A DNA stretch of 64,000 bases. Origin: Raillietiella orientalis. Taxonomy: Eukaryota. This document shows, piece after piece, positions 9,530 through 56,100 of the stretch; positions within the stretch are counted from its first letter, which is position 1, and each line of letters begins with the position of its first letter. The position numbers were made by a program, and so were the translations under genes. The DNA lies in contig JAYWIR010000097.1 in NCBI GenBank assembly GCA_036172245.1, forward strand, positions 1-64,000. Direction: 5' to 3'. Under the pieces are notes generated by a model that saw only the letters and a program-made list of their open reading frames with translations, made no database searches and had not been told where the DNA came from.

Positions 9530-12500
9530 AGGTTTCTTTGGAAACCTTGATAAAATTGTAGGGGAAACTTTGGAAGAGGACATCACGGAAGATGTTGCAC
9601 ATCTTGGGATAGAAGATGAGCAGCCCGTTGATCTCAGGATATGGTGCGATGCTCCTCTATTCCCTGTACCAGAAGAGAGAAGAACTGCAGAAATCGAGTC
9701 TGGAGAAGAACAAGTATTAAATTGCTGAAGCTGTAGATGAGATGCATATTACCGATGCCCCTACTCGAACAGCAAAGAAGTAAAATGAACTGAAATCAGC
9801 GAGCAGTTTGAAGAGAACAGGAAAGCCTTCTCAGGGTTCTTGAAGTCGGATATTATGGAATGGCCCGACTTCCATAACGCCTTTGACGAATTGGTGGATA
9901 AAATAAAGAAAATTCTGAAGATCAGCCCACCAAAGGGTCACAGCAAACCAAGACAAGTAGACCCACATAACAAGGCTGAGATACAAAGAATGTATCGGAT
10001 GAACCGGCGGAGGGCTTTCCGGTCAATTTGGGGGCAGATGGAATCTCGCTGCCAAATTGATGCCGGGAGGATTGAAGAACATTTCCACGATGAACTTGAG
10101 GCATCCCCGACGATTGACTGCAATCTGCCGGGGAATATACTTCTAGGGAGAGACTTGCAAGCTGCTCCCCTAGAATTGTCCCCTTTCACGCAGGAAGAGG
10201 TGGCTTCTTGGTTGAGAAAAGCGGAGAACTCTTCACCTGGTCTGGATGGAATAACTTATTCGGGATGGAAGATGGTAGATCCTGAAGCAGAGTTGTTGAC
10301 TGCCATCTCTATCAACAGCCTGCTAAAGCACAAAAGAATTCCATCCTCTTGGAAATGCACGCGTACGGTTCTGGTACCGAAACGCGATCCATCCTCACAG
10401 ATCATGTCTGACTGGCGTCCAATTTCAATTGGTAACGCCAGCTCCCGTCTCTATACGAAATGCTTGGCTGGTCGTTTGCGGGACTGGATTCTAGAAAATC
10501 AAATAATATGACTCCAGCAGAAAGGATTTTTGCCATTTGATGGCGTTTTAGAACGTAATTTTGTTCCACAAACATGTTTGGATCATGCTTGGAGATCCTC
10601 CAAGGACTTCAGTGTGGTTTTTGTTGATCTAGCCGACGCATTTGGTTCCTTGATTCATGACATGTTAATCAATACTTTCGAAAAGATTAATGTTGGTAGT
10701 GTTTTCGTGGAACTAGTGAAAGAACTTTACCAAGATAGTTCCACGTATGTCCAGCTTGAAAACACTTCGAAAAGACCATTTATTCCCCGTCGAGGGGTGA
10801 AGCAAGGATGCCCTCTGAGCTCTTTGCTATTCATCATTGCTGTGGAGCCACTTTTCCGTGAACTGAGGGAGTGCTACGGTGAGAGTTCCCTACTGGCCTT
10901 CGCTGATGATCTGGCAATTATGGCCATTTCCGAGAAAGAGACTATTCAGAGGCTTGACCATTTTAAGTCTCCGATTAAAAGAGCTGGTCTCCAAATCAAC
11001 GCTAGCAAGTCTGCTACGTTGTTTTACTCCGGGAGAACACCGAAAGGAACAAGAAGCGTTGCTCTAACGGTTGATGACGAAGTTGTTGCCGATCTCACGC
11101 TATCAGAATCATATAAACAACTTGGGAAGCCATTTGGAATACAGGTGTTCCCTTGTATTCCAACAAAGGAAGAAATGGTAGCCAAGGCGGTTCAGGTTCT
11201 TAACTCTGGCCTCTCGCCCTGGCAAAAGATGGATGCCATGAGAACGTTCTACTATCCAAGCTCAGTGCATTTTCAACGTTTGGGCACCCATCAGAAACGT
11301 GTTGATCGGGAATTACGAAGAATTATAAAAGACATTTTGCATCTCCCATCAAGAGCAGCTAAGGAGTTTGTTTATGGTGAAAGGAAGATGGGGTGTATAA
11401 GGCTGATGCGGCTTTCTGATGAAGCGGAAACCTTCATCATTGATAGTTGCTTTAAGCTCCTCTCATCTCCTGATGAGTCAGTCAGCCAGCTTGCCAACGA
11501 TTCCCTGCGTGAGGTAGTGCAGAAGAGCATTCTGCAACTACCCACGGAAGAAGACATGGGAAGATTTATGACTGGTGACTGCTCTGGAAAATTCTCTCGA
11601 ACCAGTTGAGATCTGGACCACTGGTCGACAAGCATCTTCCCGGATGCATGCAATATGGAGTTTTGAAGATCGGCGTGTTCAACTTCAGATAGGAGACCTG
11701 AACTTTGATACAGGAGCATGAGCAGGAGAATGAGCAGGAGATGAGCAGGAGAATCACTGCTGCGATTCTCGGTGCTCAAAAACATCAGGCATGGCTTGAC
11801 TTGATATTTAAGCACATTGACCAAGGAAAACCCATGCAATGCGTAGGACTGCATCGCGCATCAAGTTATTTCTTGAACAACGGGGACTATCTGCGCTTTG
11901 CTGATTATCGCTTCATCCATGATGCAAGGTTAAACCTTCTACCCATTCGGGGTGTGAAACGAAGACCTGCTGCGGAACGGAGCTGTAGGAGGTGTACCCT
12001 CCGAGATGAGACGTTGCCTCATGTGCTCAATCATTGCATGAGGCACTCTCGTCTTTATACAGCTCGGCACGATGAAATAGTGCGACGAATTAAGAATGCA
12101 GCTGTAGACGTCGCAGGATGGAAGCTGTCATCTGCAAACCAGGTACTTCAAGGAAGTGAGAGCCCGCTGCGGCCGGATTTAGTCTTGCCAAAGGCTAATT
12201 CGGTCGTTGTCTTGGATATTTCCGGTCCCTTTGAAAATATGGAGGACGCCTTCACCACAACAAGAAGGGCGAAAGAGGACAAGTACCAGGACATCGTCCA
12301 ATTCTCTATAGAAGGATTGGATGCAGCGCCGAAGCTCGTGCCATCTTGGTTGGCTCCCTTGGATCATAGGATCCAAGGAACGGCGCAGTTCTAAAAGAGC
12401 TGAAAATCTCCCGTTGTTATTGCGACCGGATGCGTAAGCTGATGGTCGCGTCATGTATCCAACATAGCAGGGATATCTACTGGACGCATCGTTTGGGGCA

Positions 12501-12679: not shown

Positions 12680-15180
12680 ACCAAGTAAGGCGAAATGCCT
12701 CAGAATAGAACCTCATAACAAAAAGGAGGTCCAAAAATTCTACAGAATGAACAGAAAAAGAGCAATAAGGGCTATAATGAAGCAGCGGGATATGCGCTGA
12801 AGTTGGGACCTGAAGTCGAGGAGCACTTTCATCGGCTTTCTGTTTCTATGCAGAAGGGAAAGCTGATGAATCGCGTGCGAAGAGCATTCAGCTGGACAGG
12901 GAGGATGTTTCTTCTCCACTCAAGCTACATCCACTGTCAGAGGAAGAGCAACCTCTTACTGGCTACGAAAAGCCGAAAATTCTAGTCCAGGATCTGACGG
13001 CACAACCTACGCCGGCTGGAGGATGGTTGAGCAACATGCATCGTTGCTAACACCATTACTCAACATCTTAATCTGCAATGCAAGAATCCCGGTGGCACGG
13101 AGATGCACGAAGACAGCCCTGCTTCCGAAGGGTCAACACTGCTCCATGAACATCCATGATTGGAGGCCTATATCGCTGGGCAGTAGCGTGTAAAGGCCCT
13201 ATGCAAAATGCCTTACTGTTAAGGTTAAAGAATGGGTAATGGAACAGGAAGTAATCTGTCCTTAACAGAAGGGTTTTCGACGGTGTACTGGAGCAAAACT
13301 TTATCCTCCGGAGTCGTTTCGATCATGCAAGAAGGAAACCAGAATTCCTGGGACTAGTTTTTCTGGACATTTGAAATGCTTGCGGCACAATCCCTCATTC
13401 CTTGATGCTACAGGCGTCAACGGAGGCAGGGTTTCGCAGCCACTTTATTCAGATAGTTGAATATATCTACAAGGATGCATACACCTACATTCAATTGGAT
13501 ATGTCGTTTGCTGGGCCCATGATGCTCAAGAGAGGTATCAAACAGGGATGCCCATTAAGCTCCCTTCTGTTCATAGTAGCCATTGAACCTGCTCCGCGGA
13601 CTTTTCGGGAAAGCTACGGAGAAGAAACCATCCTGGCTTGCGCTGATGATCCTATCATTCAGGTTAGAAATGAAGAAGAGCTAGAAGACAGAATGGCACA
13701 CTTATTCGACCTTTCAAGAAGATCTGGACTCTCAGTTAATCCGTCCAAATACGCATCATTCAACCTTCAGGGAAAGACACCGAAGGGAGTTAAGAACTTG
13801 GCGCTCAAGTCTGGAGACACGCTCGTTCCGTGCTTGAATCTAGCTGAGGCGTACAAGTACCTTAACAAGCCGTCCGGTTTAGAAATCTTCAATCAACATC
13901 CCAACAGACAGGATCTTTTGTTTAAAGCAGCAAAGATATTGACGAGTGAACTGGCCATTGCAAAAGCTGGATGCCTTGTAGACCTTTGGTTTGCCAAGTT
14001 GAATACATTTTGAAAGGTTGACAACGTATCGTAAAGGTGATTGGTCGTACCTCGACAACGAAATAGGAAGAATGATCAAAGAATTGCTTCACCTCCCTCC
14101 CAGAGCCGCCAATAAATACATATATGGTGGCAGAAAGAAGTAGGCTTGAGAATGATGAAGAGGATACATTTATCTTGGACTCTTGCTGGAAGCTCCTCTC
14201 CTGGCCGGATGCTGCATTCATGAAATTGGCTCTGTCCTCTCTTAAGGGAGTTCTATTGAGAAGGACCCTTCCTCCGCCAACAGAAGATGATATGGGAAAG
14301 TTCGTATCATCAGAACAAGAAGGAAAATCCAAGCCAGAAGGGGTGGACATTAAAAGTCATTGGACGGTAGGGAGGAAAGCCTCGGGGAGGCTGTCCGCAA
14401 CTGTGTTGACGGTGACCCCAAGATCTCCGTCTCTGGTGTGACTATTGAAGTCACTCAGAGAAGAAAGGTGGCGTGGACAATCCGGAGTCTCCAGCGGGAA
14501 GCGGCATGACTTTCTCTGATAAATAAGCATCCAGATCAGGGGAAAGCGATGCGTTGCGTTGGACGCCATCAAGTCTCAAGTCACTCACAAGTCAGTATCG
14601 GCGAATACTTTCGGTTCATCCACTCAGCACGGATGAATTTAATCATGATTCGAGGGATATCACGAAAACCAACGATAGATCGAACATGCCGTCGTTGTGA
14701 CACTTGGGAGGAGACATTGTCTCACATACTTAACCATTGCATGAGGCACTCCCCATGTACCAACTCCGCCAAAACGTGGTAGTGGAGAGACTGACAAAGA
14801 CTTTCAGAGCTGGATGGAGGCTCTTGTCTGGGAATCAGCAGGTTCCAGAGAAAAACTCGACACTTCGTCTGGATCTCGTCCTCGAAGAAGATGGGAAAAT
14901 GGTGGTGTTGTATGTTGCATGCCCCTTCGAGAATGGGGAGGAGGTATTCTTCACTACCGGGATGGAGAAGGAGGACAAATACCAGGAGATCGCCACTGCT
15001 CTATCTCATGGAGGAATGAAGGTCGTCGTTTATGCCTTTATTGTTGGAGCGTTAGGGTCATGGGATCCTGAAAATGATGGAGTACTCAAAAGAGTAGGCG
15101 TTCCTCGAAGATACGCGAGGAAGATTAGAAAACTCATCGCATCTTCTGTTCTTTCACGGAGGGATCCTGACTGGTTCTAG
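12680..15180 (+). mobile_element. Decayed RT + RLE non-LTR retrotransposon, copy C, related to copy B and directly downstream of it
   Basis: Starts with RIEPHNKKEVQKFYRMNRKRAIR (cf. QVDPHNKAEIQRMYRMNRRRAFR in copy B). Also KRGIKQGCPLSSLLF, LACADD, YKYL, FILDSCWKLLS, FRFIHSARMNL, CRRCDTWEETLSHILNHC, LRLDLV, CPFEN, KEDKY and AFIVGALGSWDPEND. Confidence 0.9.
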
Positions 15181-17534: not shown

Positions 17535-20500
17535 CTGGAAAGTAAAAGCTCGTTTGAAATCTTCAGCAGTAAGCTTCTTCCGATGCGCGGCAAGAGCGAC
17601 AAGCTGCCTGAATATTCTAAAGCGCGCCTCCTTGGTATGTGCAAGACAGCTCTGAGCAGTTCGTGTTGCAATCGAGAAAAGGCACTTCCAGGCTGTTTTA
17701 CTTACTCCATTTCCTACTTTCGCACAACGACCCGTAATATTCCACAGGACAGGTGCAATTCACTTGATTCTGGAATTTGGCTTCACATTTGCCACCATTC
17801 ATGCATGGGCATTCTGAAGTGAAACGGAAAAAATGATTGCTTGCCGGTTCGTCAGCAAGTCGGACACACTGCTGAATGCTCGCAAAACTTGGCATCCATG
17901 ACTCTTGCATTCGTTCACGCTTTTCACGAAAGAAAAGTGGAAGGAGTTTCAAGCTCAATCAAACTTTCCCGCTGTTTATTCTTTGGGAACCCGTATTGAA
18001 ATGGCATCCAGGTTGCCTTCATGTGCGCGTTGTTACGGATGCAAGCAACAACAGCATTCGGTTATCTGCCATGGCGGGACTTACTGCACACAAGGAATCC
18101 TGTACTTTCATCCTGAAGGCAGTAATGTTGGCACTCTGACGTATTGCTGCATCCGCAGCCATCCGGGTAAGGCGCTCGATGACACTGAACTAGGAACGGG
18201 TGGCATTCAGTATTCCGAGATTCTCTCTCCAGATGAATGCAAGCTGCAGAGGAAATCCATTACCGCACTTCCTGAAGCCTGTCGTAAACGCCAGCAAGCA
18301 GGAACGGCTTGCGCACTGATCGTCCGTCGCGCAGGTACACCCGTCGGGGAGATGTGACCCCAAGCATAAACCTAATTCGGGTGAGCAACAAGTCAGCGCT
18401 TGCAAAATTATTGCAAACACATACTCGCACGAAAGACGGGCGTGGTGCACGGAGCCAATGAGACAAAGAAGCAACAGTTACAAAGTTTGGCATTAATCAT
18501 TTAATAACCCTTTTGATTATCACGTCGTTTGCTTTTGTAACTGCGACGAACTTTTGTACCAAACTTTTTGTATGCGTGTACTTATCGAAAGACCGTAAAC
18601 GGAGTGCACGCACCCCTTACAGGTCTGTCGGTTGGTTAGAGAGAGAAGGCAAACGGCACTCCATCCCATACCCTTACGCGCGTAACGGGAGTCGGAACGT
18701 TGAGCTTTGGTTCGAAATCCCGGAACGAAAAACGGGGAATCGTAAACATTATTCCACATCGATTGATGCACGAATTTATTCTCACGTACACAGTGATGTA
18801 TATTAACACGCGTTTTATAGACAGTAACATTATTTGAACGGATGTATATTTGTGAACGTTTATCTGCATGCATAGCAAGCCATTGATTCGATCATTGAAA
18901 AAGGTGTATATACCTGAAAAAAGTCGCAAAAGAATGGATACGCATATAAGTAGTTGAGAATGTGGATATTGGGAAAATTTGGGGTCTGACCAGGTTCACA
19001 TCGCGCAACTATACTCACTCGGATCACATAGTCCTTTGATGCAGTGATGAAAGCAATCTCCATCCTTGTCACAAGGACATCCTGTAGGTTTCGGGACGAC
19101 AGTGCAATCTTCTGCAAATTACTGATTATTGCAATTTATTCGTCGGTACCTTTCTCGTGAAAAAATGCAAACTCGTATGTGCAGCAACTTGCAAGATCTA
19201 ATCTTCATTTAGACAAGCGAATTGGATCCCCAGAGGAACTTTCGACATCCCCTTTTCACCATCATTCGGGATGAAGACTCTTTTTGTAGTAATTCAGAGT
19301 TTTGTACGAAATCTCCGCTGCACTCGCTCGCAAATAGCCGCCATTGGTCACTCTGATGAGTCGCACAAACGAAGCCACTTGATGATTATTGATTACTGGT
19401 TTAGGAAGAAACGAAAACTCAGTTTCCGGCAAGTGGAGTACGTGCAATCAGACGTTCGCTCTTGACTGACTCCTTTGCTTCAAAAGAGAAATTTTCCCTG
19501 CCATTTGATGATTTACGACATGGAATTATGGACACATTTAACCTTTCAGATGTTCGCATTCCTGTAGTTTCGTTTTCCACAAATCATTATTCTTGCAGTC
19601 ATTCATTCTTGATGGAATGATTGGAGTACGCATTTTTCCGAGGGAGGGACAGCTCGGAGTTGATCGAAGGGCGAACGCTCACGGTGCGAAGAGGGAAGGA
19701 TTTCAGTGTTGGCTTCAGACGAGCGAGGAAGAGCATTCAAGGAGGAACAGGTAAGACATTGGAAAGCGAAGCAGCAACACATTCAGCGAACATTTGCGAT
19801 TCCTGCTGAAATGCTTTTCTGGAGGAACAAATACGTAATGGTTTCAATCCACGATGATGGCAGCTGCAGTCTTTTCTGCTTCCGCAGACCTTTTTAAGCA
19901 AGCATTCAACTTCGCAAGTGCGGTATGTTCAATTTTCGTGGTTGCAAAAGTGCATTTCCGAAACTTCTGCCTTGTGGTTCTCCCCATTTGTTTGAACTGC
20001 AGCTCAAAAGATGGATTTGAATGCGGAATGCAACTCATAGATAGCTCCAGGCATTCCCTCCAAAGACTATCATCGCATATGCGCAACGTGTGCGGTGAAA
20101 GCAGATGATCGCAGAACAAACTGAAGACCCAATAAATTGGACACCCCTCCGCTACCATTGATGGCTCCTCCCACAATCCAATAACCAAGGACACTTCCAA
20201 TATCTTTCTAACACAACTCCATCTACACTCACCGTCTTCAACAAATAACCCTTAGCATACACCCTCGTTCCACGTACACCAAAGTAACGAGAAAAACATC
20301 CAGAAATTTCATCATGAGCGGCAATATGATCCATTACATTGCCATAATGGAATCCAGCCATCGATCCAAAATGCTCTCCTTGCGCAGCAGCCTTATACAA
20401 TATCATATTCCTATACGATACTTTCATTCCGAACTCCTCCGCCATATTTCCTATCGTCAATCCAAGAGACATGGGCTCCACCTTCGTCGCACATCCTTTG

Positions 20501-23500
20501 ATCTTCACATAAGGATAATAACGCGCACACTGTTCTAAATTTAATGTTCTCAACAAACTATTCATTTTTTCATAATCCTCAATATAAGCAAACATCCACG
20601 AACAATTCACATCGTCACAATTATCAACAGTCCTCAAAGACGCGTAATGAGCAGCACCAACCAAACCAGCCCTCTCATCGACAGTTTGCCAACGAGGATT
20701 TCTTTTCTTAACTTCACACGACGACGACGCCTATTCCAACGGCGACGACGCTTGAACGTATCATAACCATCGCGCAATGTGGTCAGTCGACGACGCTTCC
20801 AGCTCTTCGAACGACTCGACGCCTTCCTCTTTGGAGAAAGAAAACGACGTGCTGGTCGCCATTCGGTTTAGAGAAAGCCTACTGAGGATTTTTCGAACCC
20901 CCCTCCCTTCTTAACTCCGAGCTGGTGGGCGTGGCTCACCCGACTACACTAGCCTGCCACTAGGTCGGGTGAAACCAGACACTGCAGCTGGAAAGCTCAT
21001 CGCTTTTCCGCATTCCTCAGTCTTCCACGGCTGCGGATAAAAAAAAACCAGGCGCTCAAAATAAAAATGCTTACATAACAATTTCCCACGGTGTCGGATG
21101 ACCACTGGGCAATCTGGGTAATACTGACCAGATTGCGCTAACAAAAAATACTGCGCAGTTAGCCAGTACGTAAACCACCGACAACATCCACACCGCAGTG
21201 TTACCTCCAGTGGATTTCGCATGTGCCACCATGCCTTCAGCACTCAACTTCAATTGGCGCATCACTTTTTGCAACTACACAGAGCGAGAATTTAAAGAAA
21301 TGAAAGGATGGTGCTTCGCCTGCTTTGGACGCGAGACCGCTGAGAGCGGCACACCTCACTTGCAAGGCTCATACAACTCGAGGAGCCAAGGACTTTGCCC
21401 TGTTTGCACCGCAAACCATTCCATAAGACTCACTTGGAACGCGCAAAAGGCACGCTGCAGAGCAGCTTGAGGTACTGCAGTAAGGAAGATAAGAATCCTT
21501 GGACACACGGATCTCTCAACTCAATGAAACCACCGAACCAAAATCATACCAAGAACAGGTTCTTTACCATAAATAATTGACGATAAAATCAAATTCTTTG
21601 ATACTCCAACTCATCGAGAACGGAGCAGACGAGCTCTACATTTTGAAAAATCATACGCAGTTTTACTCGAAAAATGTAAACTTCCTAAAAGAGTGCTTTC
21701 GCCCATCAAGAACCAGGCAACACCCTAATCCCATGGCCAATCTTCAACTCAAACAGTAGCAAATGGACATCATGGACATCATTCGCCACAAACCCAATCC
21801 ACGAAAAATCCACTGGTATTACGACACCTGTGGCAACGCTGGCAAGACGACGATGGCGAAGTTTTTATTCTTGAAGAAGGACGCAATCTACAAGCACTCC
21901 TGCGTGAAAGCCGATGCTGTACAACGTAGAGCGAATCTTAGTGGTTGACTTTGCTAAGGATAACATGGAGCACGTACAGTACGACTTTATTGAATCACGA
22001 AAAAATGGAATCATCTTTGATTCCAAGTATCAAGCAAGTCTAAAATATTTTCAGCCACCTCATATTATTGTCTTTGCAAATTGGCAACCCGACTTTGCAA
22101 AACTATCAACAGATAGATGGATTGCCCAATAACCAAAGTCTCTCCGTAATATTTACCGTTTAGGATGCCCACAAATAGTGCTGCAGCAACGGAAGGTGCG
22201 AAGCCAAATGACAGAACAAGCTGTTTACGGGGTACGCAAAGATTCCTGCTTTTGCGGAAGGAGTTGCCTGTAGAGATGAGAACCGTGGCCAAAGACGAAC
22301 CGCAATGCGTGTCACGAAGTCACGCTGCACGCTGCACTCGAAACAGAAAGACATCGGTAATACGTGCGGCGTGCGCTTTCCAAGTCGGTTGAACTGGTCT
22401 GTGCACATCACTGTAGTTACTGGCCTTCGAACGGAGCCTCCAGGAAAGGGGCACTGCCTCCCAAATACGAACCCCAATTCTCGTTCAGGGAAACTCCGGA
22501 CGAGACAAACACTGAATCATGAAATCATTCTTCCCCTTCATGTGGTCAAGCAACAAGGAAAGGAAGGGCATGGGCCAGAGGCAGCGAACGGAACTAACCA
22601 ACCTCGCTCCTTGAAATTTAAGAGGGAAAGCGGAGGGATCGAAACGGGAATGATCACGTGCATGCAAAATGCAAATGGAAGCAGTAAAAGTTACGAAAAA
22701 GTTACGACGCCTTCAGCTTTAATGTCGAACTGAAAGCAAAGCGCACTCCTGAATTTTTGGAAAAGGGAAGAGGGAGAACAATTTGCGTTCAAGTAATGCA
22801 CTGACAAAAACGGTTCTGTGGAATCTCTTCATTTCACCTCAGCTGAACTGATTTGGCCGTTAGCTGTGCCAAACTTACCGCAAGTTCCCGTTATTCTGTT
22901 ACACTTCATCCATCCCAGACACTGAACATCCGTGGAGCACGGGCATCCCTCTGCTAGAAACCCGGACAAGGACTCCCCGATTACAAGGCAATACTCTGAA
23001 AGGTAAAGCAGTGCATTCATAAACTTTCCTCTGAAAACCCGTGTTCGTGGGGGGGGGGGGGGAGAGAGAGAAAGAATTTCTTCTTCTTCGGCGGTGAAGC
23101 GGTGCTCAGTACAACGAATGAATGAGCGTCATCATCCTACCTGCACAACTCAAGCCTTTTGCCGACTCACTCGGAACGCATTTCCCGGAGAAGCACTCAT
23201 CCGATGTTCTGCAAGGACAACCGCTCGGCCGCCACCTTTGTTTGGAACAGCCGGAGTCTGGAATGAGCTATCAAAGAACGTTGTTTACTTGAACTCTTAA
23301 AGTCGGGAAGAAAAATGAGGGAACAAGCGCGGTGTACATGTTTTTTTTTAATTTTTTTTGTTTTTTGAGGGGGGCAGGGGGGATGCAGGGCAATGGGGAA
23401 GTGGCTCGAATACATACAGCAACTTCTCTTCCAGAGTTAAAAGCTTTTTTCCCACACTAACAGAGGTCGCCCAAAAGGATGAATATCAGAAATAGGAAGA

Positions 23501-26500
23501 GGGGGAAGAAAAGAGTGCGGGAGCCCTCACGATACCTGTGCACCGGCGCCTCCTGCAATGGTGTTTGCAGTGCGCATTGGAAGTACACGGACAGCCAGGA
23601 AGTCGGGGGGCAGCAACACAATTCACTGGAATGAAAAGAAAGGAATGTGCACCGCTTGAGCCGAGCGACTGCTCTGTGTTTGCAAAAGTGGTAAAGAATG
23701 AAAAGTGCGTACCGCATACTTTTTTATCCTGCTGTCTGCCGCATACGTTATCTTTGCAGTCTTTCGGAGAGTTGCACGCACAGAAGGGCGATTTGAGGGG
23801 CACATTGCACTGTGGATCTGCAACATCGCATTTGGGTTAATCAGCCACTATCGCACAATCACGAGGTCATTTTTTTTACGACATGTACTCAAGCAACAAG
23901 GAGATAAAGGGCATTGTCTAGGGCAGGCAACGGAATCAATCAATCAGTTATACAAGCCACGCTCCTTGAAATTGAAGAAGGAATGCAGAGGGATCGAAAC
24001 GGGAAGCATTTCCGGGAGGAGAATTCTGCGGGGAGTTCGTGAAAGAAGCGGCAGTGCTCCTGAAAACTTCCAGGACAGCGCAGTTCGTTCTCACGAGGAA
24101 ATGCTTCCGAGTGTTCCGCACGCTGACACCAACGGACTGCACGGCAGACACCCTGTTGTGCACTACTCACAGCACGTTCCGAACGCCGATTTCGGTTCAG
24201 GTTTCACGCAGGACTCGGAAGCACACTGCATATCCGATACACAGGAGCAGCCGGCCTCTTTTCTTCTTGAACACTTGTCTACGATACAGGGTGAGCATTA
24301 TGAATTGAGGACAACGTTCGGAAAGCGCAGTTTCGAAGATTTTTGGCTACCCGCGCAACGCACCTTTGCCACCGCAACTCAGAAACCCGGTTGCCGCGTC
24401 TCTCTCGCAGATGTTGAAGCATTCTTCTGGAAAGGAACATGCGCAACCGTCCGGATAGGGCGGAGCACAACCTGAAGAGCCCCCCTCGTCACCACGAAAC
24501 ACCTCCCGGGATCAAGTCCTACCGCATGCTTTCCCGCTGCAAAACTTTTCTTCGCACTCGTCGTGTTGCGTGCAGGGACATCCGGGAGGTCTGGTGTGTT
24601 GCTGGCAAATTCCTAAACAGGACAACAGGATTTCGAATCTCCGATCAAAACAAGAATAAGGAAATGCAAAGCATGGAACGCAACCAAGTCGTGTACAACC
24701 TCCATCGCAGATGTATCCTCTTGTATGGATTATGCAAACAAGGCACTCGGGATTGCAAGGACAACCACCGCCTCGGGGACACACTGAACACAGCAACAGT
24801 TTTCGAGAACACGTGAATACTCATTCAGTACCAGAGCACTTCTTGATCTCGTCAACGATTGCAAGGCAATCTTTGCCTCCGCAACCTTTCGGGCTGTCGC
24901 AGGGGCAGCCTTCAACGTTCCCACGAGAACACGCCCCTTCAAAACCTGAATGCACACTTTCTGGAAGGAACCCATCACGAGGAAGGAACTTTTCATACCG
25001 CATGTCTCGTTCAAGCATAACGACTTCAGACAGTGACTGGGGTGCGCACACCTACACGTGGGCGGTTTCACGGCTATCGCAGCACACGCGTCTACGATGG
25101 AAAAGGAAGAAGGCAAGTGTGTGAATCGACAAGTCCCGAACCGGTGTACTACTGACTGTCATCCACAGAGCAGAAGTTGTGGGAGCACTCCAAACTCTGG
25201 CAGGAGTCAGGACTGGTGCACGGACAGTAGGGGCTAAGAGGTGGTTTCTTGCAGTTTCCTACAATTAGAGTCTAAGCTCGGTATCCACGTCATTTCGTCG
25301 TCACGTTTGGGGGGGGGGGGCAAAAGCCGGAAAAGGGGGACGGTTAAGTTGAACCGGTTTCCCTTGGTAAGTGCCAGCAAAGTTCTTAAACTGACCACAG
25401 TCGGAATGGAACGGAGGTTTTCGAACGCAAATGGCTTCTTACCGCAGTAGCTGAAACCTTTGGAAGTCACGCATTCATGCTGACATGGCTTGTTTTTGTT
25501 GTTGCAAGGACATCCGGGAGCTCCGATGAACTTGCAGAGAGTGTCTAAAAGACAAACGATTCGGGAATGTGTGATTTCCCTTCTACTAAAGTGCACATGC
25601 GTTTCAGGTCCAAAAAACTACAATGCCAAGCATGAATCTCGCATTTTGCGCGCTTCGAATCCACGGCTTAAGAAGGCATGCGATTTTGCAAGCAAGAAGC
25701 CCTTCGTTGAGGACGCATTCGTTCAAGAAGCCTCCTTTCTTGTCTTCGTTAAAGGTGAATGAGATGAATGTGGAATTTTCCTCTACCTGGAGTGCACTTC
25801 AGTTCGCTTAGATTGCATACTCCTTCACACTGACGAGAGTTACTGCAAGAGCAACCAGGCATGAAAGCATATCTGCAGCTTCCTGAATCGGATGTAAGCA
25901 AACGTGGAGAGAGCAAGGAAAACTTACGGCAGTAACATTTGCTGCAAATGCTTTCTCCGTGGCAGTCAGCATTGTCCTTGCAATTGCACTCTGACTTGCC
26001 ACACTTATCGGAAGCCGTAACTGTTGACGAGATGATTCATTAAAAAAAAAAAAAAACAGATACTCATTGTGGATTGCTGACACTTTCGAGGCTAGCATTT
26101 CACACTAGAGTTTTCTAATCACCACGAAACTCACTATCGGATGTGAATCGAACGGTGAGTTTTTCAAGAGTCGCGCTCAGATTGGTGGCTTTCCTCACCA
26201 CGTTCGAAACAGCAAGCATTTCTTGGTGTTTCTCAACAAGGAGTCCGAGTGGGAATTGGAAAGTTGAAGAAGCCAAGACAAAGTCGCAGTAAACGATTGG
26301 TTGGAAAAAGCGATGTTTTGGAAATTCCAGTCACTTACCGCATTTCGCTTTGAAGCAGACTCCACAAGCGCATTGCGAATGCTCAATGCAGTCGCATTCC
26401 GGGGGAAATGGAGGATTTGGAGGGCATATCAAGCGACCTAGAATACATTTTCTTTTCTACTGGATGCATACTCAGGAACTCTGGCAAGATATTGAGTGCG

Positions 26501-53100: not shown

Positions 53101-56100
53101 GAGCTTTTCATGAAGACGAAGGATCATATATCGGACGAAAATTATTGTTAATTGATCTCCCTTGCAGAGAGTCGAATACGTCATAAAATATATCTACAAA
53201 AAGCAATGGAAGCACTTATTGGATGTCTGCTCTAAGTGAAGAAGCACATTACGATGCAGTACTCATACCTGTTGGAAGAAAAGGAATAGCATCAATCAAT
53301 GGAATCGGCGAGTGTCCAAACCCTCCATCTATCTCTAATCCTCCAAATCCTCTGACTTGGAAGTAACATATGAGCATTTTCTGAATCATCACTGTGACTG
53401 TATGTTTTCCGGTGACGGGACTTTGTTCAGTATACACAACTTTGCCAAAGTCAGTGTGCCTTTGTTCAATACTAAAGTTGGGCTTTTGAAATGAGATATC
53501 CATTTGATGTAGGATTAAGTTATATTCGTCAGGGACAACAGGAGATAGAATCATTTCCGAACAAGACAAAACAAATGTGTAATTTTGAATGGTGCCGTCA
53601 ACATCAAAAGAAAAAGTTTTCCTTTCGGTGCTTACTTCGTAATGGATTAAATCGGAGTATAAATGAACCTGAACGATGTAATCGTTGAGGGTCTAAAAAT
53701 ATGGAGAATCATATCAGTCTAAACACAAATGAATGTCATCATGCATGGAAATATCTCAACGTTGAGAAGAAGCAGGAATTTATATGATTAAATAAAGCCT
53801 GCTTTTCGATGGATATTCATTTTACATGGCATTGGCATAATTTTGGTTCCATCTTTTATACCGTTCCGTACGATGCAAAAGCACTTTCTGTTTTCTAATT
53901 TCTGATATTAATTAATTAACTAATGTAACTATATTTGAGCAAAAATTTACCTGATTCTAATACTGTTATGTAACAAAAATATGTGTATACATTATGTATT
54001 CATTATATAATTATATTAATTTTATTCCTGATTTTGACTATGTTATTTACAAGAAATCTTAGAGATAGAATTAGAATATTCTTCTTTTATTTATATCAAA
54101 CCACAACTGTTTTGCATAACGATAATTTATTATTAATATATAATACACTTTAAAATTTTAAATCATTACAATTACCACTACTTCAAATGAAACCATTACT
54201 ATAACCCGCTGAATCGTAATCTTTAAGAAAGTAACATTAACTTGAAATAAATCTTATAATACCTCCAAACCACGCAACCCAATAATCTATCGCTATCATA
54301 GCCGAATTCAACTACATTTCCTCATACATAGCAATCATTTTATTCAACCCATCAACATCCAGTATAAATACCAATTTCACGCTAAAGAAGCAAGACACGC
54401 ATGCTTCTAAAATATTCATTCAAATACACACTTCACTATTTTTTAGAACTTTCAAATGCATCTGGTTCCATAATCCAGAGGAATTTAGTTACAGGGAAAT
54501 CAGAAATACAATCCTTTTTTTATTTTATACTTACTGCCAAGAGTTTTCTTTTATGATTTCGTAAATATATCCCTGCCAAAAGCAAATCATTGAATATCAA
54601 AACGAAGGTGAAATTCCCAAAGTATATCCTGCCCCATTATTCCTTGTGCCTGTTCAACAGAATGGGTGATTACAACGTAAATGATTCCAAATTCTCAGAA
54701 ACTCTGTAATGCAATTTCTTGGCTGAGGCATTATTATAGTTTTTGTTTTGAAGAACATAAAGGTTTATATTCACTGCTTTTGAGCAGCTCTGGATCCTTG
54801 TCTAATATTACCGTTCAACCAATTTGCATAATTATCTATTCTAGTAGATGGACACGCACCGGCTGTACATATATTAAAATTGAAGTTGGTCAGATTCCGA
54901 GAAGACTGTGCCGTTCAGATACCAGGCAGTTTTCCGAAGATGCTCGCATCGGATTCTGCAAGATTTGTTGATTCAAAGTAGACAGTGCCTGTGGCCATTT
55001 CAATTTCACCCTATTCCAAACGAGAATGCTTTTCTATATTTCGTGGTTGGCACTTGATTTTCAAGCTTGCGGGTCACATGGCAGGCCAAATGCCAAAGAA
55101 AAACCACTTTCATCCGAAGAGACTTCTTGACATGCCGTTTGCGTAGATTCGGAAACACAATTGCATCGAAAGATGCTTTCGATCCGCAAAGTGATGCCTG
55201 TGGAAAATGACCTTTTGTGAAATATGCGCCTTAGCGATTAGAAACAAAGTTTTCCAGAGTCTTTCATTGTAATTACCAAGGAATTACCAGTTTTCATAAC
55301 AAGAGTTTCAACATCATTCATCACTTCTCGGTACGTTACTTAGAAACTGAATTGCATCTAAAATGCATAAGCTTTCGTGTTTTCGACACGTGACAATCAG
55401 CAGATTTTTCGTATGAAATTCAACATACCGATTCGGGAGTTTTGAACTTTCCTTCCATCGGTAGAGAATTCTGTCTTTTGGAAATTAGGATTTCTCCTGC
55501 TATAATATAGTCTTCTTGACGACTGATTCGCGATTATGCATCTCAATTTTCCTTCACGAGTCAGGCTCCTTTTCGGCATTGAACATTCGTCCGAGTCACT
55601 TTTGCCTCCTCTCTGCTTATCTCAACTTGAAAATCGCTTCTTTTCACAGTGCATACCTCAGTCAGAATAAACTGCCGTGCATTCCTGAGTTGACACCATT
55701 TTTCCTATCTCAATCCCACTAACTGTTAAGCTCAGTTCAAGTCTGTACTCTATTGAATGTACAAGCAAATTGTTAAGCTCTGCGACCAAGCAACCACTCT
55801 TGCAAAAAAAAAAAAAAAAAAAAGACATCTTCGATCTATAAAACTTTTTCTTCGTTTTTCTAGAAAGTGTAAGTTTGTGCAAGACTTTCTGGACTATTCG
55901 TTGAAAACTTTTTCTCGAAAGTTATTTGCTATGGAAAAAACAGTCATGACAGCATGAATGAGTCTTTTTTGTTTTACTCAGAATTGTATGAAAGAAATGT
56001 ACTCTGTTTCATTTTGAGGGCCATGCCACTCTCGATTCAGCGTGATACGGGCATTTAGAATCCAAATCAGACTGAGCGAAAACGAAAACGAAGAAGGGAA

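Follow-up and report, generated by a model that had tools for sequence, protein, structure and literature searches.

A probable dead endogenous CRESS-DNA virus element with rep, origin hairpin and a cap-like region in a Raillietiella orientalis contig

Genes and origin-type hairpin of the locus

The stretch of DNA analysed (64 kb, hereafter the window) contains, at 20.1-22.1 kb, a near unit-length copy of about 2 kb in which a cap-like ORF, an intergenic region with an origin-type hairpin and a rep gene follow one another from left to right (Table 1). The two genes are divergent, with rep on the plus and the cap-like ORF on the minus strand of a single unit (ambisense, single molecule). A window skew scan marked the stretch from ~20100 to ~21900 as distinct and strongly negative in GC skew; the left boundary (~20100) was placed by skew only and is approximate. 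The Rep, Arg-rich ORF and stem-loop reported within about 2 kb by the first-pass annotation were all present in the sequence, as was the ambisense Cressdnaviricota layout that it had proposed, which recurs in the nearest free genomes.

Table 1. Coordinates of the element's features and of the nearby host exon (positions in the window; a dot marks a feature without strand).
Feature	Position	Strand	Basis and remarks
EGF-like exon	17701-17958	-	Pfam
192-aa ORF, probable Cap body	20152-20730	-	ORF list, position; stop codon 20152-20154
Arg/Lys-rich N-terminal remnant of probable Cap	20634-20867	-	translation
Long intergenic region between 5' ends of the divergent genes	20868-21230	.	sequence and translations
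Origin-type hairpin, 9-bp stem, 10-nt loop	21109-21136	-	inverted-repeat search, fold, motif search
Rep piece 1, frame 3 (ATG, motif I ITFCNY, motif II TPHLQG)	21231-21370	+	profile, PDB, tblastn
Rep piece 2, frame 2 (motif III RYCSKE)	21371-21553	+	profile, PDB, tblastn
Rep piece 3, frame 1 (linker domain, Walker A GNAGKT)	21577-21915	+	profile, alignment
Rep piece 4, frame 2 (Walker B, motif C, LS.DRW)	21920-22132	+	profile, identity to relatives

The rep gene consists of four collinear pieces split by three frameshifts (at about 21360-21400, 21540-21610 and 21914-21925), and piece 3 is additionally interrupted by an in-frame stop at 21757-21759. As the first-pass annotation had noted, the translations display the rolling-circle motifs I, II (HUH-type H.Q) and III (Y..K) in order and, downstream of the nuclease, Walker A, Walker B (VVDF) and motif C (VFAN); the last two and DRW all lie in frame 2 of piece 4, which closes with the stop codon 22130-22132. 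The HMM check suggested for Rep was run with a profile built from 38 intact Reps of small uncultivated viral contigs, which was searched against the ORFs of the 64-kb window and matched exactly these four pieces and nothing else (next best ORF, E = 1.8): piece 1 at 21174-21467 (profile 10-63, E = 5.3e-7), piece 2 at 21344-21577 (profile 57-109, E = 2.1e-6), piece 3 at 21760-21945 (profile 127-180, E = 4.4e-14) and piece 4 at 21908-22129 (profile 189-254, E = 4.9e-26, an overstated value, since a motif from this piece had served to fish the relatives). The same four-piece pattern was obtained by tblastn with Reps from IMG/VR and metagenome contigs. Among PDB entries, piece 1 matched the Rep nuclease 7kii (E = 0.002) and piece 2 aligned at motif III with porcine circovirus 2 Rep chains (E = 0.058-0.21). 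Pfam Viral_Rep (PF02407) matched the split piece 1 below cutoff (14 bits vs 26, E = 0.062), and the Pfam helicase family RNA_helicase gave no match from the element's Rep pieces. Piece 3 was 35% identical to the relative L053 across 110 aa (21607-21915), and piece 4 was 41-50% identical over its entire length to six relatives and 51% identical to the best metagenome relative over residues 5-72.

The stem-loop described earlier as intact is indeed so: the arms GCAATCTGG/CCAGATTGC (21109-21117 and 21128-21136) are perfect 9-bp complements, the 10-nt loop reads TCAGTATTAC on the minus strand, and the DNA fold (-8.5 kcal/mol, z = -4.29) was equalled by 0 of 200 shuffles. The nonanucleotide CAGTATTAC occupies 21118-21126 of the minus strand, that is, the strand opposite rep, in the loop of this intergenic hairpin, and Rep starts on the plus strand 95 nt to the right of the stem. 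The 8-mer AGTATTAC by itself is not rare (2 matches vs 0.82 expected in the 64-kb window); the origin signal is the motif within a perfect hairpin adjoining rep, not the 8-mer alone. A second perfect 9-bp inverted repeat is present in the intergenic region at 20936-20972.

On the other side of the intergenic region, Arg and Lys account for 26 of the first 56 residues (counted by eye) of the minus-strand frame 20634-20867, which is not the frame of the 192-aa ORF but shares positions 20634-20730 with it, so that the cap region has undergone at least one frame change within this overlap. The Arg-rich frame is not headed by an ATG, the nearest (20862-20860) lying in the third frame. From 20862 to 20152 the region spans ~237 codons, and its position, orientation, size and basic N-terminus fit a capsid gene; divergent ORFs of 219-324 aa with a basic N-terminus hold the matching place in the nearest free genomes. 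Like the rest of the element, the 192-aa ORF is strongly negative in GC skew; its length is not unusual, as the 64-kb window contains 45 frames that reach 130 aa or more. No homologue of the ORF or of the Arg-rich stretch was found, including among the relatives' second ORFs and in Pfam, and the circovirus capsid family in Pfam gave no match from the cap-like region. The sole library match of the ORF was weak, to a repeat protein containing NB-ARC and TPR domains, and Pfam detected no TPR in it. Its fold model (pLDDT 32.7) was unusable, and its Atlas score (0.84) serves as no more than a lead. Of the Arg-rich capsid remnant claimed by the first-pass annotation, the divergent Arg-rich ORF thus stands, while its capsid identity found neither a homologue nor a usable fold; judged from position, size and basic N-terminus only, the 192-aa ORF and the Arg-rich stretch probably represent Cap.

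Free relatives and named virus groups

Relatives were fished from viral contigs with a motif taken from Rep piece 4. This motif matched viral contigs at least 124 times and 596 billion bases of prokaryote genomes twice, one of the two matches lying in a 2331-nt contig bearing Rep and the other in a contig without it; the motif is viral, not prokaryotic. The search for related circular genomes in metagenomes, recommended in the first-pass annotation, was fruitful: the best relatives have genomes of 2.0-2.3 kb that are likewise arranged divergently, and their Rep identity to the element is 35-51%; examples are IMGVR_UViG_3300001372_000053 (L064, 2324 nt), L040 and L071 and the metagenome loci L137 and L127. 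Terminal redundancy was present in L057, L079 and L001, and these are therefore circular. Pfam Viral_Rep was detected in all 13 relatives scanned (above cutoff in 11), and RNA_helicase matched weakly in seven of the 13 (above cutoff in three).

The small circular ssDNA genomes of IMG/VR and metagenomes share with the element the Rep motif set, collinear across all four pieces, and a hairpin with CAGTATTAC or TAGTATTAC opposite rep. A nonanucleotide in this orientation was found in L064, L063, L040, L071, L048, L010 and L021, and in the first two it is identical to that of the element. They differ from it in that Rep identity is only ~29-51% per piece, cap similarity is not detectable, and the intergenic region measures 363 nt in the element vs roughly 95 nt in L064 (an estimate from coordinates); unlike these free genomes, the element is integrated and broken. 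On sequence grounds, it combines a Cressdnaviricota-type Rep with a hairpin origin, in a lineage that appears to have no close sequenced relative.

A non-viral origin was weighed against these data, namely that Rep belongs to an HUH replicon of the bacterial plasmid type or to a eukaryotic rolling-circle transposon and that the left ORF is unrelated host sequence. The capsid identity is positional, and the only library match of the left ORF is a cellular TPR-repeat protein, both of which would suit such an origin. However, plasmid tblastn and phage blastn gave no match, the Rep signature is nearly absent from prokaryote genomes (one of its two matches there being the 2.3-kb Rep contig), the relatives are contigs of 2-2.8 kb with hairpin origins and second ORFs with a basic N-terminus, and the left ORF resembles the rest of the element in skew, is likewise present in an independent run (X1, see below) and has no TPR by Pfam. 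In rolling-circle transposons of the Helitron type, Rep is large and forms one protein with a Pif1-like helicase. The Rep at this locus is only ~300 aa long, and its helicase part (Walker A, Walker B, motif C) aligns with the Reps of the relatives; membership among Helitron-type transposons or plasmid Reps was accordingly rejected, and we regard a non-viral origin as exceedingly improbable.

Among named virus groups, the Circoviridae resemble the element in its ambisense layout of ~2 kb and in its nuclease pieces, which match circovirus Rep nucleases (the porcine circovirus 2 chains and 7kii, the latter given as Muscovy duck circovirus Rep in the available text of PMC9973303). The helicase pieces did not match porcine circovirus 2 Rep (E up to 10), the intact relative L064 aligned with the full-length porcine circovirus 2 Rep (7lar) over the nuclease domain only, and Pfam found no circovirus capsid, on which grounds membership in Circoviridae was rejected. 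The nonanucleotide on the cap-sense strand, as in the element, is what we take to be the cyclovirus arrangement; judged by its helicase sequence, the lineage appears to be neither circovirus nor cyclovirus. Its helicase signature (VFAN..PD...LS.DRW) may resemble that of Reps of Nanoviridae and Alphasatellitidae, as the first-pass annotation had proposed. Nanovirus and alphasatellite replicons are one-gene, unidirectional molecules of ~1 kb, and their genome plan was rejected for the element, in which rep is joined by a divergent second gene on one unit of ~2 kb. L064 matched 2hwt (presumably a nanovirus Rep nuclease, its record being named only 'Putative replicase-associated protein') and 6h8o at 6e-8, more weakly than circovirus nucleases (4e-25 and 1e-14).

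Flanking DNA, integration and copy number

The surrounding DNA is eukaryotic and repeat-rich, with two reverse-transcriptase (RVT_1) ORFs and one EGF-like exon. Pfam scans covered 161 ORFs of the window (16 + 145 of at least 75 aa) and placed both RVT_1 matches 6-10 kb to the left of the element; one match at 53249-53692 was below cutoff, and the ORFs scanned within ~30 kb to the right gave none. The host exons that the first-pass annotation had placed on both sides were thus reduced to the single EGF-like exon on the left. Viral sequence is contiguous with eukaryotic DNA on both sides in the assembly only, and inactivating mutations affect both genes, as had been claimed (three frame changes and one stop in rep, at least one frame change in the cap region). 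Contiguity and decay together point to probable germline integration, in line with the earlier claim apart from its host exons on both sides.

In the independent run X1, four exact contigs of 151-153 nt (20157-20309, 20311-20461, 20549-20699 and 21438-21588) total 606 nt with zero differences from the element, and a fifth, corresponding to 20463-20545, shows 12 differences (about 85% alike). Because the four independent contigs are identical to it, the window sequence is probably accurate in the stretches that they cover; none of the frameshift sites is clearly covered. X1 gave no cover of ~2.4 kb of flanking DNA (19000-20056 and 21718-22925) or of either virus-host junction.

The bare junctions in X1 could indicate an assembly artefact, in which sequencing errors account for the frameshifts and a contaminating free CRESS genome became joined to a host contig; contamination of assemblies by small ssDNA viruses is frequent, and the available text of Dennis et al. 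warns of it in short contigs (PMC6069186). Against this, the distance from the element to the two window ends is 20 kb and 42 kb, with eukaryotic DNA on both sides, its lesions include an in-frame stop and a missing cap start besides indels, the frame changes are away from long homopolymer runs (by eye), and the 606 nt of X1 contigs agree with it throughout. We consider an artefact very improbable.

The split in X1 between element and flanks, with four exact pieces and one at ~85% inside and zero cover outside, is by a rough estimate rarely produced by uniform low coverage, and it would also be seen if the element were not a single old insertion but a member of a multi-copy host family or had a near-identical episomal or exogenous counterpart; a virus-derived unit may have been amplified, perhaps recently, by segmental duplication or a mobile element, or its viral twin may still be circulating in these animals. 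X1, however, was chosen for holding words of this stretch, so that its cover of 19600-22700 is partly selected, contigs lose rare sequence, so that holes prove little, and no second copy was found in the 64-kb window. Further copies or a living counterpart are therefore unlikely in our judgement. Should they exist, they would connect an unclassified CRESS lineage, its coat gene unrecognisable, with a living animal host, and would mean that the complete genome of a small virus, along with its origin, had been propagated within another genome.

A probable fossil of a CRESS-DNA virus

Taken together, the locus is best read, with a probability of about 0.85, as a dead endogenous CRESS-DNA virus element, a decayed fossil of known kind. 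The break that opened the free genome would have fallen in its short intergenic region, where the 3' ends of the two genes face each other, which would explain the present order of the 3' end of cap, cap, the long intergenic region with the hairpin, and rep up to its stop. Since the hairpin is internal and has stayed intact, illegitimate recombination of the double-stranded replicative form, and not Rep nicking at the nonanucleotide, may have created the junction with host DNA. Decay after insertion would then have left rep with three frameshifts and a stop, and cap with at least one frameshift and without a usable start. The element presumably cannot make Rep or virions and most likely does nothing today.

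Known endogenous CRESS and circovirus-like elements of animals are likewise decayed Rep-bearing inserts. According to the text available, all sequences newly identified by Dennis et al. were derived from rep and none from cap (PMC6069186), and on a tapeworm scaffold Rosario et al. (2018) described a Rep that is nearly full together with a partial capsid (PMC6186406). Compared with the inserts of Dennis et al., as far as that text describes them, the present element retains rep, origin hairpin and probable cap together in viral order; the rarity of this combination, asserted in the first-pass annotation, agrees with the rep-only fragments reported there from invertebrate screens (PMC6069186).

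The practical value of the element is modest, as a data point linking a virus to a host and as a probe for a living virus and for further copies. Most CRESS-DNA viruses are known from metagenomes only, without a known host, and an integrated copy testifies directly to the past entry of a lineage into the germline nuclei of a particular host. Because rep, origin hairpin and probable coat gene were kept in viral order, the element preserves the genome organisation of a lineage for which Rep identity to the nearest sequenced relatives is only 35-51%.

Rep gene and its viral relatives

To the right of the origin hairpin, the Rep motifs are spread over four separate frame segments of the plus strand (pieces 1 to 4, see table). 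The first-pass annotation had read a Rep with nuclease and helicase motifs from this stretch; both sets were indeed found in order across the four segments, with profile support. Direct searches detected little: Pfam matched the pieces through Viral_Rep alone (E 0.062), and no match was obtained in word-index protein searches with the pieces and their read-through or when the helicase read-through was run against Pfam and PDB, nor did a scan of viral contigs with piece 4 as a single protein return relatives. Among solved structures, piece 1 matched chain positions 20-65 of 7kii (E 0.002), the Rep nuclease of Muscovy duck circovirus (PMC9973303), and five Rep chains of porcine circovirus 2 aligned with piece 2 around motif III (chain positions 79-102, E 0.058-0.21), the two matches being modest and collinear.

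Relatives were retrieved by back-translating the C-terminal signature to a degenerate DNA pattern, which was scanned over IMG/VR and matched at least 124 stretches; the contigs measured 2-4.6 kb in almost every case, with two of about 1 kb. Of 122 loci from these matches, an ORF of 120 aa or more with the motif was present in 114. Pfam recognized Viral_Rep in all 13 relatives scanned (11 above cutoff) and RNA_helicase weakly in seven of the 13 (three above cutoff); since even the relatives match RNA_helicase weakly, it follows that Pfam does not see the broken helicase of the window. When 38 full-length Reps from the IMG/VR loci fished by motif were made into a profile, it matched the four window frames and no others, the runner-up frame having an E-value of 1.8. 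The value for piece 4 is inflated because the loci had been selected by a motif taken from that same piece, a bias that leaves the other three E-values unaffected. Searches by tblastn with single Reps gave the identical piece order and frames, and 114 such queries produced one match below E 0.01 outside the element, as expected by chance. Metagenomes searched with an alignment of seven sequences yielded 210 relatives; these repeat the four-piece pattern, and the best is 51% identical to piece 4 over its residues 5-72. Neither the IMG/VR nor the metagenome scan turned up a close exogenous relative. A FastTree tree was built from the Reps of 62 relatives, each of the four unjoined pieces entering as its own row; all four pieces sat on long branches (nearest distances 1.1-2.0), pieces 1 and 4 near the relatives L128, L127 and L123 and pieces 2 and 3 near L134, and no placement was drawn from it. 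The relatives are viral. Four of them (L057, L079, L001 and L063) are terminally redundant: the motif or hairpin recurs at either end of the contig, or part of Rep appears twice once the contig is circularised. They represent complete circular genomes, about 2.0-2.6 kb long.

A plasmid or transposon origin of the Rep was also considered. No match was found by tblastn against 72,556 plasmids or by blastn against phages, and the degenerate pattern matched twice in prokaryote genomes (596 billion bases) versus at least 124 times in viral sequence. One of the two prokaryote matches falls on L197 (DATKGO010000068.1), a contig of 2331 nt that was binned with a Patescibacteria MAG; it carries a complete CRESS-type Rep (profile E 4e-76), is as long as an entire CRESS genome and probably comes from a virus but was binned with the bacterium, while the other lies on a 599-kb chromosome contig without a Rep. 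The absence of plasmid matches and the two pattern matches in prokaryotes make a plasmid or transposon Rep very unlikely.

Features of the element and its surroundings in the 64,000-nt window
Feature	Position	Strand	Evidence or remarks
RVT_1	10512-11609	+	Pfam E 1e-24
RVT_1	13375-14013	+	Pfam E 3e-13
EGF-like exon	17701-17958	-	Pfam EGF 22.4 bits vs cutoff 21.5, textbook cysteine pattern
192-aa open frame (cap ORF)	20152-20730	-	overlaps the Arg/Lys-rich frame in a different phase
Arg/Lys-rich frame	20634-20867	-	26 of the first 56 residues R or K, counted by eye
Origin hairpin	21109-21136	- (nonanucleotide)	perfect 9-bp inverted repeat, 10-nt loop
Rep piece 1: ITFCNY and TPHLQG	21231 to ~21370	+	stop-to-stop frames
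Rep piece 2: RYCSKE	~21371-21553	+	stop-to-stop frames
Rep piece 3: linker and GNAGKT	21577-21915	+	in-frame stop at 21757-21759
Rep piece 4: VVDF, VFAN, LS.DRW	21920-22132	+	stop-to-stop frames
Profile match, profile 10-63	21174-21467	+	E 5.3e-7
Profile match, profile 57-109	21344-21577	+	E 2.1e-6
Profile match, profile 127-180	21760-21945	+	E 4.4e-14
Profile match, profile 189-254	21908-22129	+	E 4.9e-26 (inflated by motif selection)
Below-cutoff Pfam match	53249-53692		Pfam

Origin hairpin and divergent left ORF

The stem-loop proposed from the sequence alone is present, its perfect 9-bp stem enclosing a loop that reads TCAGTATTAC on the minus strand. Folded as single-stranded DNA, the hairpin has an energy of -8.5 kcal/mol (z -4.29), which none of 200 shuffled sequences equalled. 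With two copies in the window where 0.82 would be expected, the octamer AGTATTAC is common enough alone that the motif counts only through its placement in a hairpin 95 nt upstream of the rep start codon. Among the relatives' hairpin sites, 42 of 55 carry TAGTATTAC and seven CAGTATTAC, and the rep strand bears the nonanucleotide at 30 sites and the opposite strand at 25, terminal redundancy causing some loci to be counted twice. Like the window, the relatives scoring best against it (L064, L063, L040, L071, L048, L010 and L021) all have the nonanucleotide opposite rep, and L064 and L063 share CAGTATTAC with the window hairpin. The viral intergenic region also contains another perfect 9-bp inverted repeat (TCACCCGAC/GTCGGGTGA, 20936-20972, 19-nt loop), and 21147-21163, 27 nt downstream of the hairpin, is a 76% direct copy of its loop and right arm that contains a second CAGTATT on the minus strand. 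This copy may be iteron-like or the remnant of a duplicated origin; scanning the intergenic region for direct repeats revealed no clear iterons. A scan for bacterial promoters and terminators gave chance-level results, and such a model does not apply in eukaryotic DNA.

Of the Arg-rich capsid remnant claimed in the first-pass annotation, the divergent basic frame stands, but sequence searches gave it no homologue. On the minus strand, about 237 codons separate the nearest upstream ATG (20862) from the stop (20152). The cap ORF matched nothing in Pfam and, used as a single protein, found no relatives among viral contigs; the best E-values were 0.11 for the cap region against 602 ORFs of IMG/VR loci, 0.088 against 598 ORFs of metagenome loci, and 1.9 (blastp) and 0.72 (phmmer) for the cap ORF against 55 candidate caps. 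The seven best-scoring relatives all carry, divergent from rep, an ORF of 219-324 aa whose N-terminus is basic. Because the 55 candidate caps split into 28 unrelated clusters, the absence of cap similarity is expected and is no evidence against a capsid. An exhaustive HMMER scan returned a single match to the cap ORF (E 5.8e-8 over nine stretches), P0001, a 1316-aa protein with 14 TPR_12 stretches and an NB-ARC domain. Its kinship was rejected as repeat-amplified noise: pairwise identity was 20-26% (best E 2e-4), every repeat matched weakly, and Pfam sees no TPR in the ORF. An AlphaFold model made with no alignment was unusable (pLDDT 32.7), and the best Atlas score, 0.84 for SPRY/Neuralized clusters, is a lead only, with recognition below the useful level. 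Indirect evidence suggests that the left ORF is part of the viral unit: a strong negative GC skew from about 20100 to about 21900 includes it, and X1, a public DNA sequencing run, contains it together with rep sequence. X1 was the one public run found for this stretch, and no RNA data set was listed for it.

Genomic setting and probable integration

The window is eukaryotic and probably animal. The host exons expected on both sides did not emerge: in a Pfam scan of 161 window ORFs, the sole host protein-coding sign near the element was the EGF-like exon (ECPCMNGGKCE...CTCPVEYYGSLCE) about 2.1 kb to its left, and the scanned ORFs within about 30 kb to its right had no match. A regex search for further EGF exons yielded poor candidates only, and Rfam had no match within the window. 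To the right, a direct repeat of about 125 nt (22539-22650 and 23882-24005, 74% identity) and a 37-nt piece (23048-23084) with a summed depth of 244 in X1 make the flank look like repeated DNA, not exons. Three decayed non-LTR retrotransposon copies lie in like orientation on the plus strand (781-2866, 9789-12394 and 13375-15180), and in their C-terminal parts, judged by eye, a Cys/His knuckle precedes a PD...D...K-like stretch, an arrangement that may resemble the restriction-like endonuclease of R2-type elements. The G+C content is 49-56% over the first 10 kb and drops to 35-41% past 44 kb.

Run X1 contains four contigs identical to the element (606 nt in total) and one further piece with 12 differences in 83 nt. 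It covers neither the flanks and junctions nor 20812-21415 and 21718-22925, gaps that by themselves prove nothing. Taken together, the run supports the accuracy of the sequence and hints at extra copies, but gives the junctions no confirmation. From left to right, the element consists of the cap 3' end, cap, the intergenic region with the intact hairpin, rep and the rep 3' end, an order that would arise if a circular ambisense genome were opened between its two stop codons. Since the hairpin is internal and unbroken, a double-stranded replicative form, not a Rep-nicked molecule, would have been joined to a chromosomal break, and both genes would have decayed after insertion. On the plus strand, 20131-20136 reads AATAAA, immediately to the left of the cap stop and, on the closed circle, shortly 3' of the rep stop (22132); speculatively, this position fits a short intergenic region split by integration.

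Relation to known endogenous elements

Judged by its helicase, the element would belong to a lineage outside Circoviridae; membership of the nanoviruses is contradicted by the genome layout. Decayed CRESS or circovirus-like inserts are described as well documented in animals (PMC6069186; PMC6186406), of which the element is a further example. The newly identified sequences reported from a screen of invertebrate genomes were all rep-derived (PMC6069186), and a tapeworm locus is described as a Rep with a partial capsid (PMC6186406). The element in the window has kept the full gene order together with the origin.
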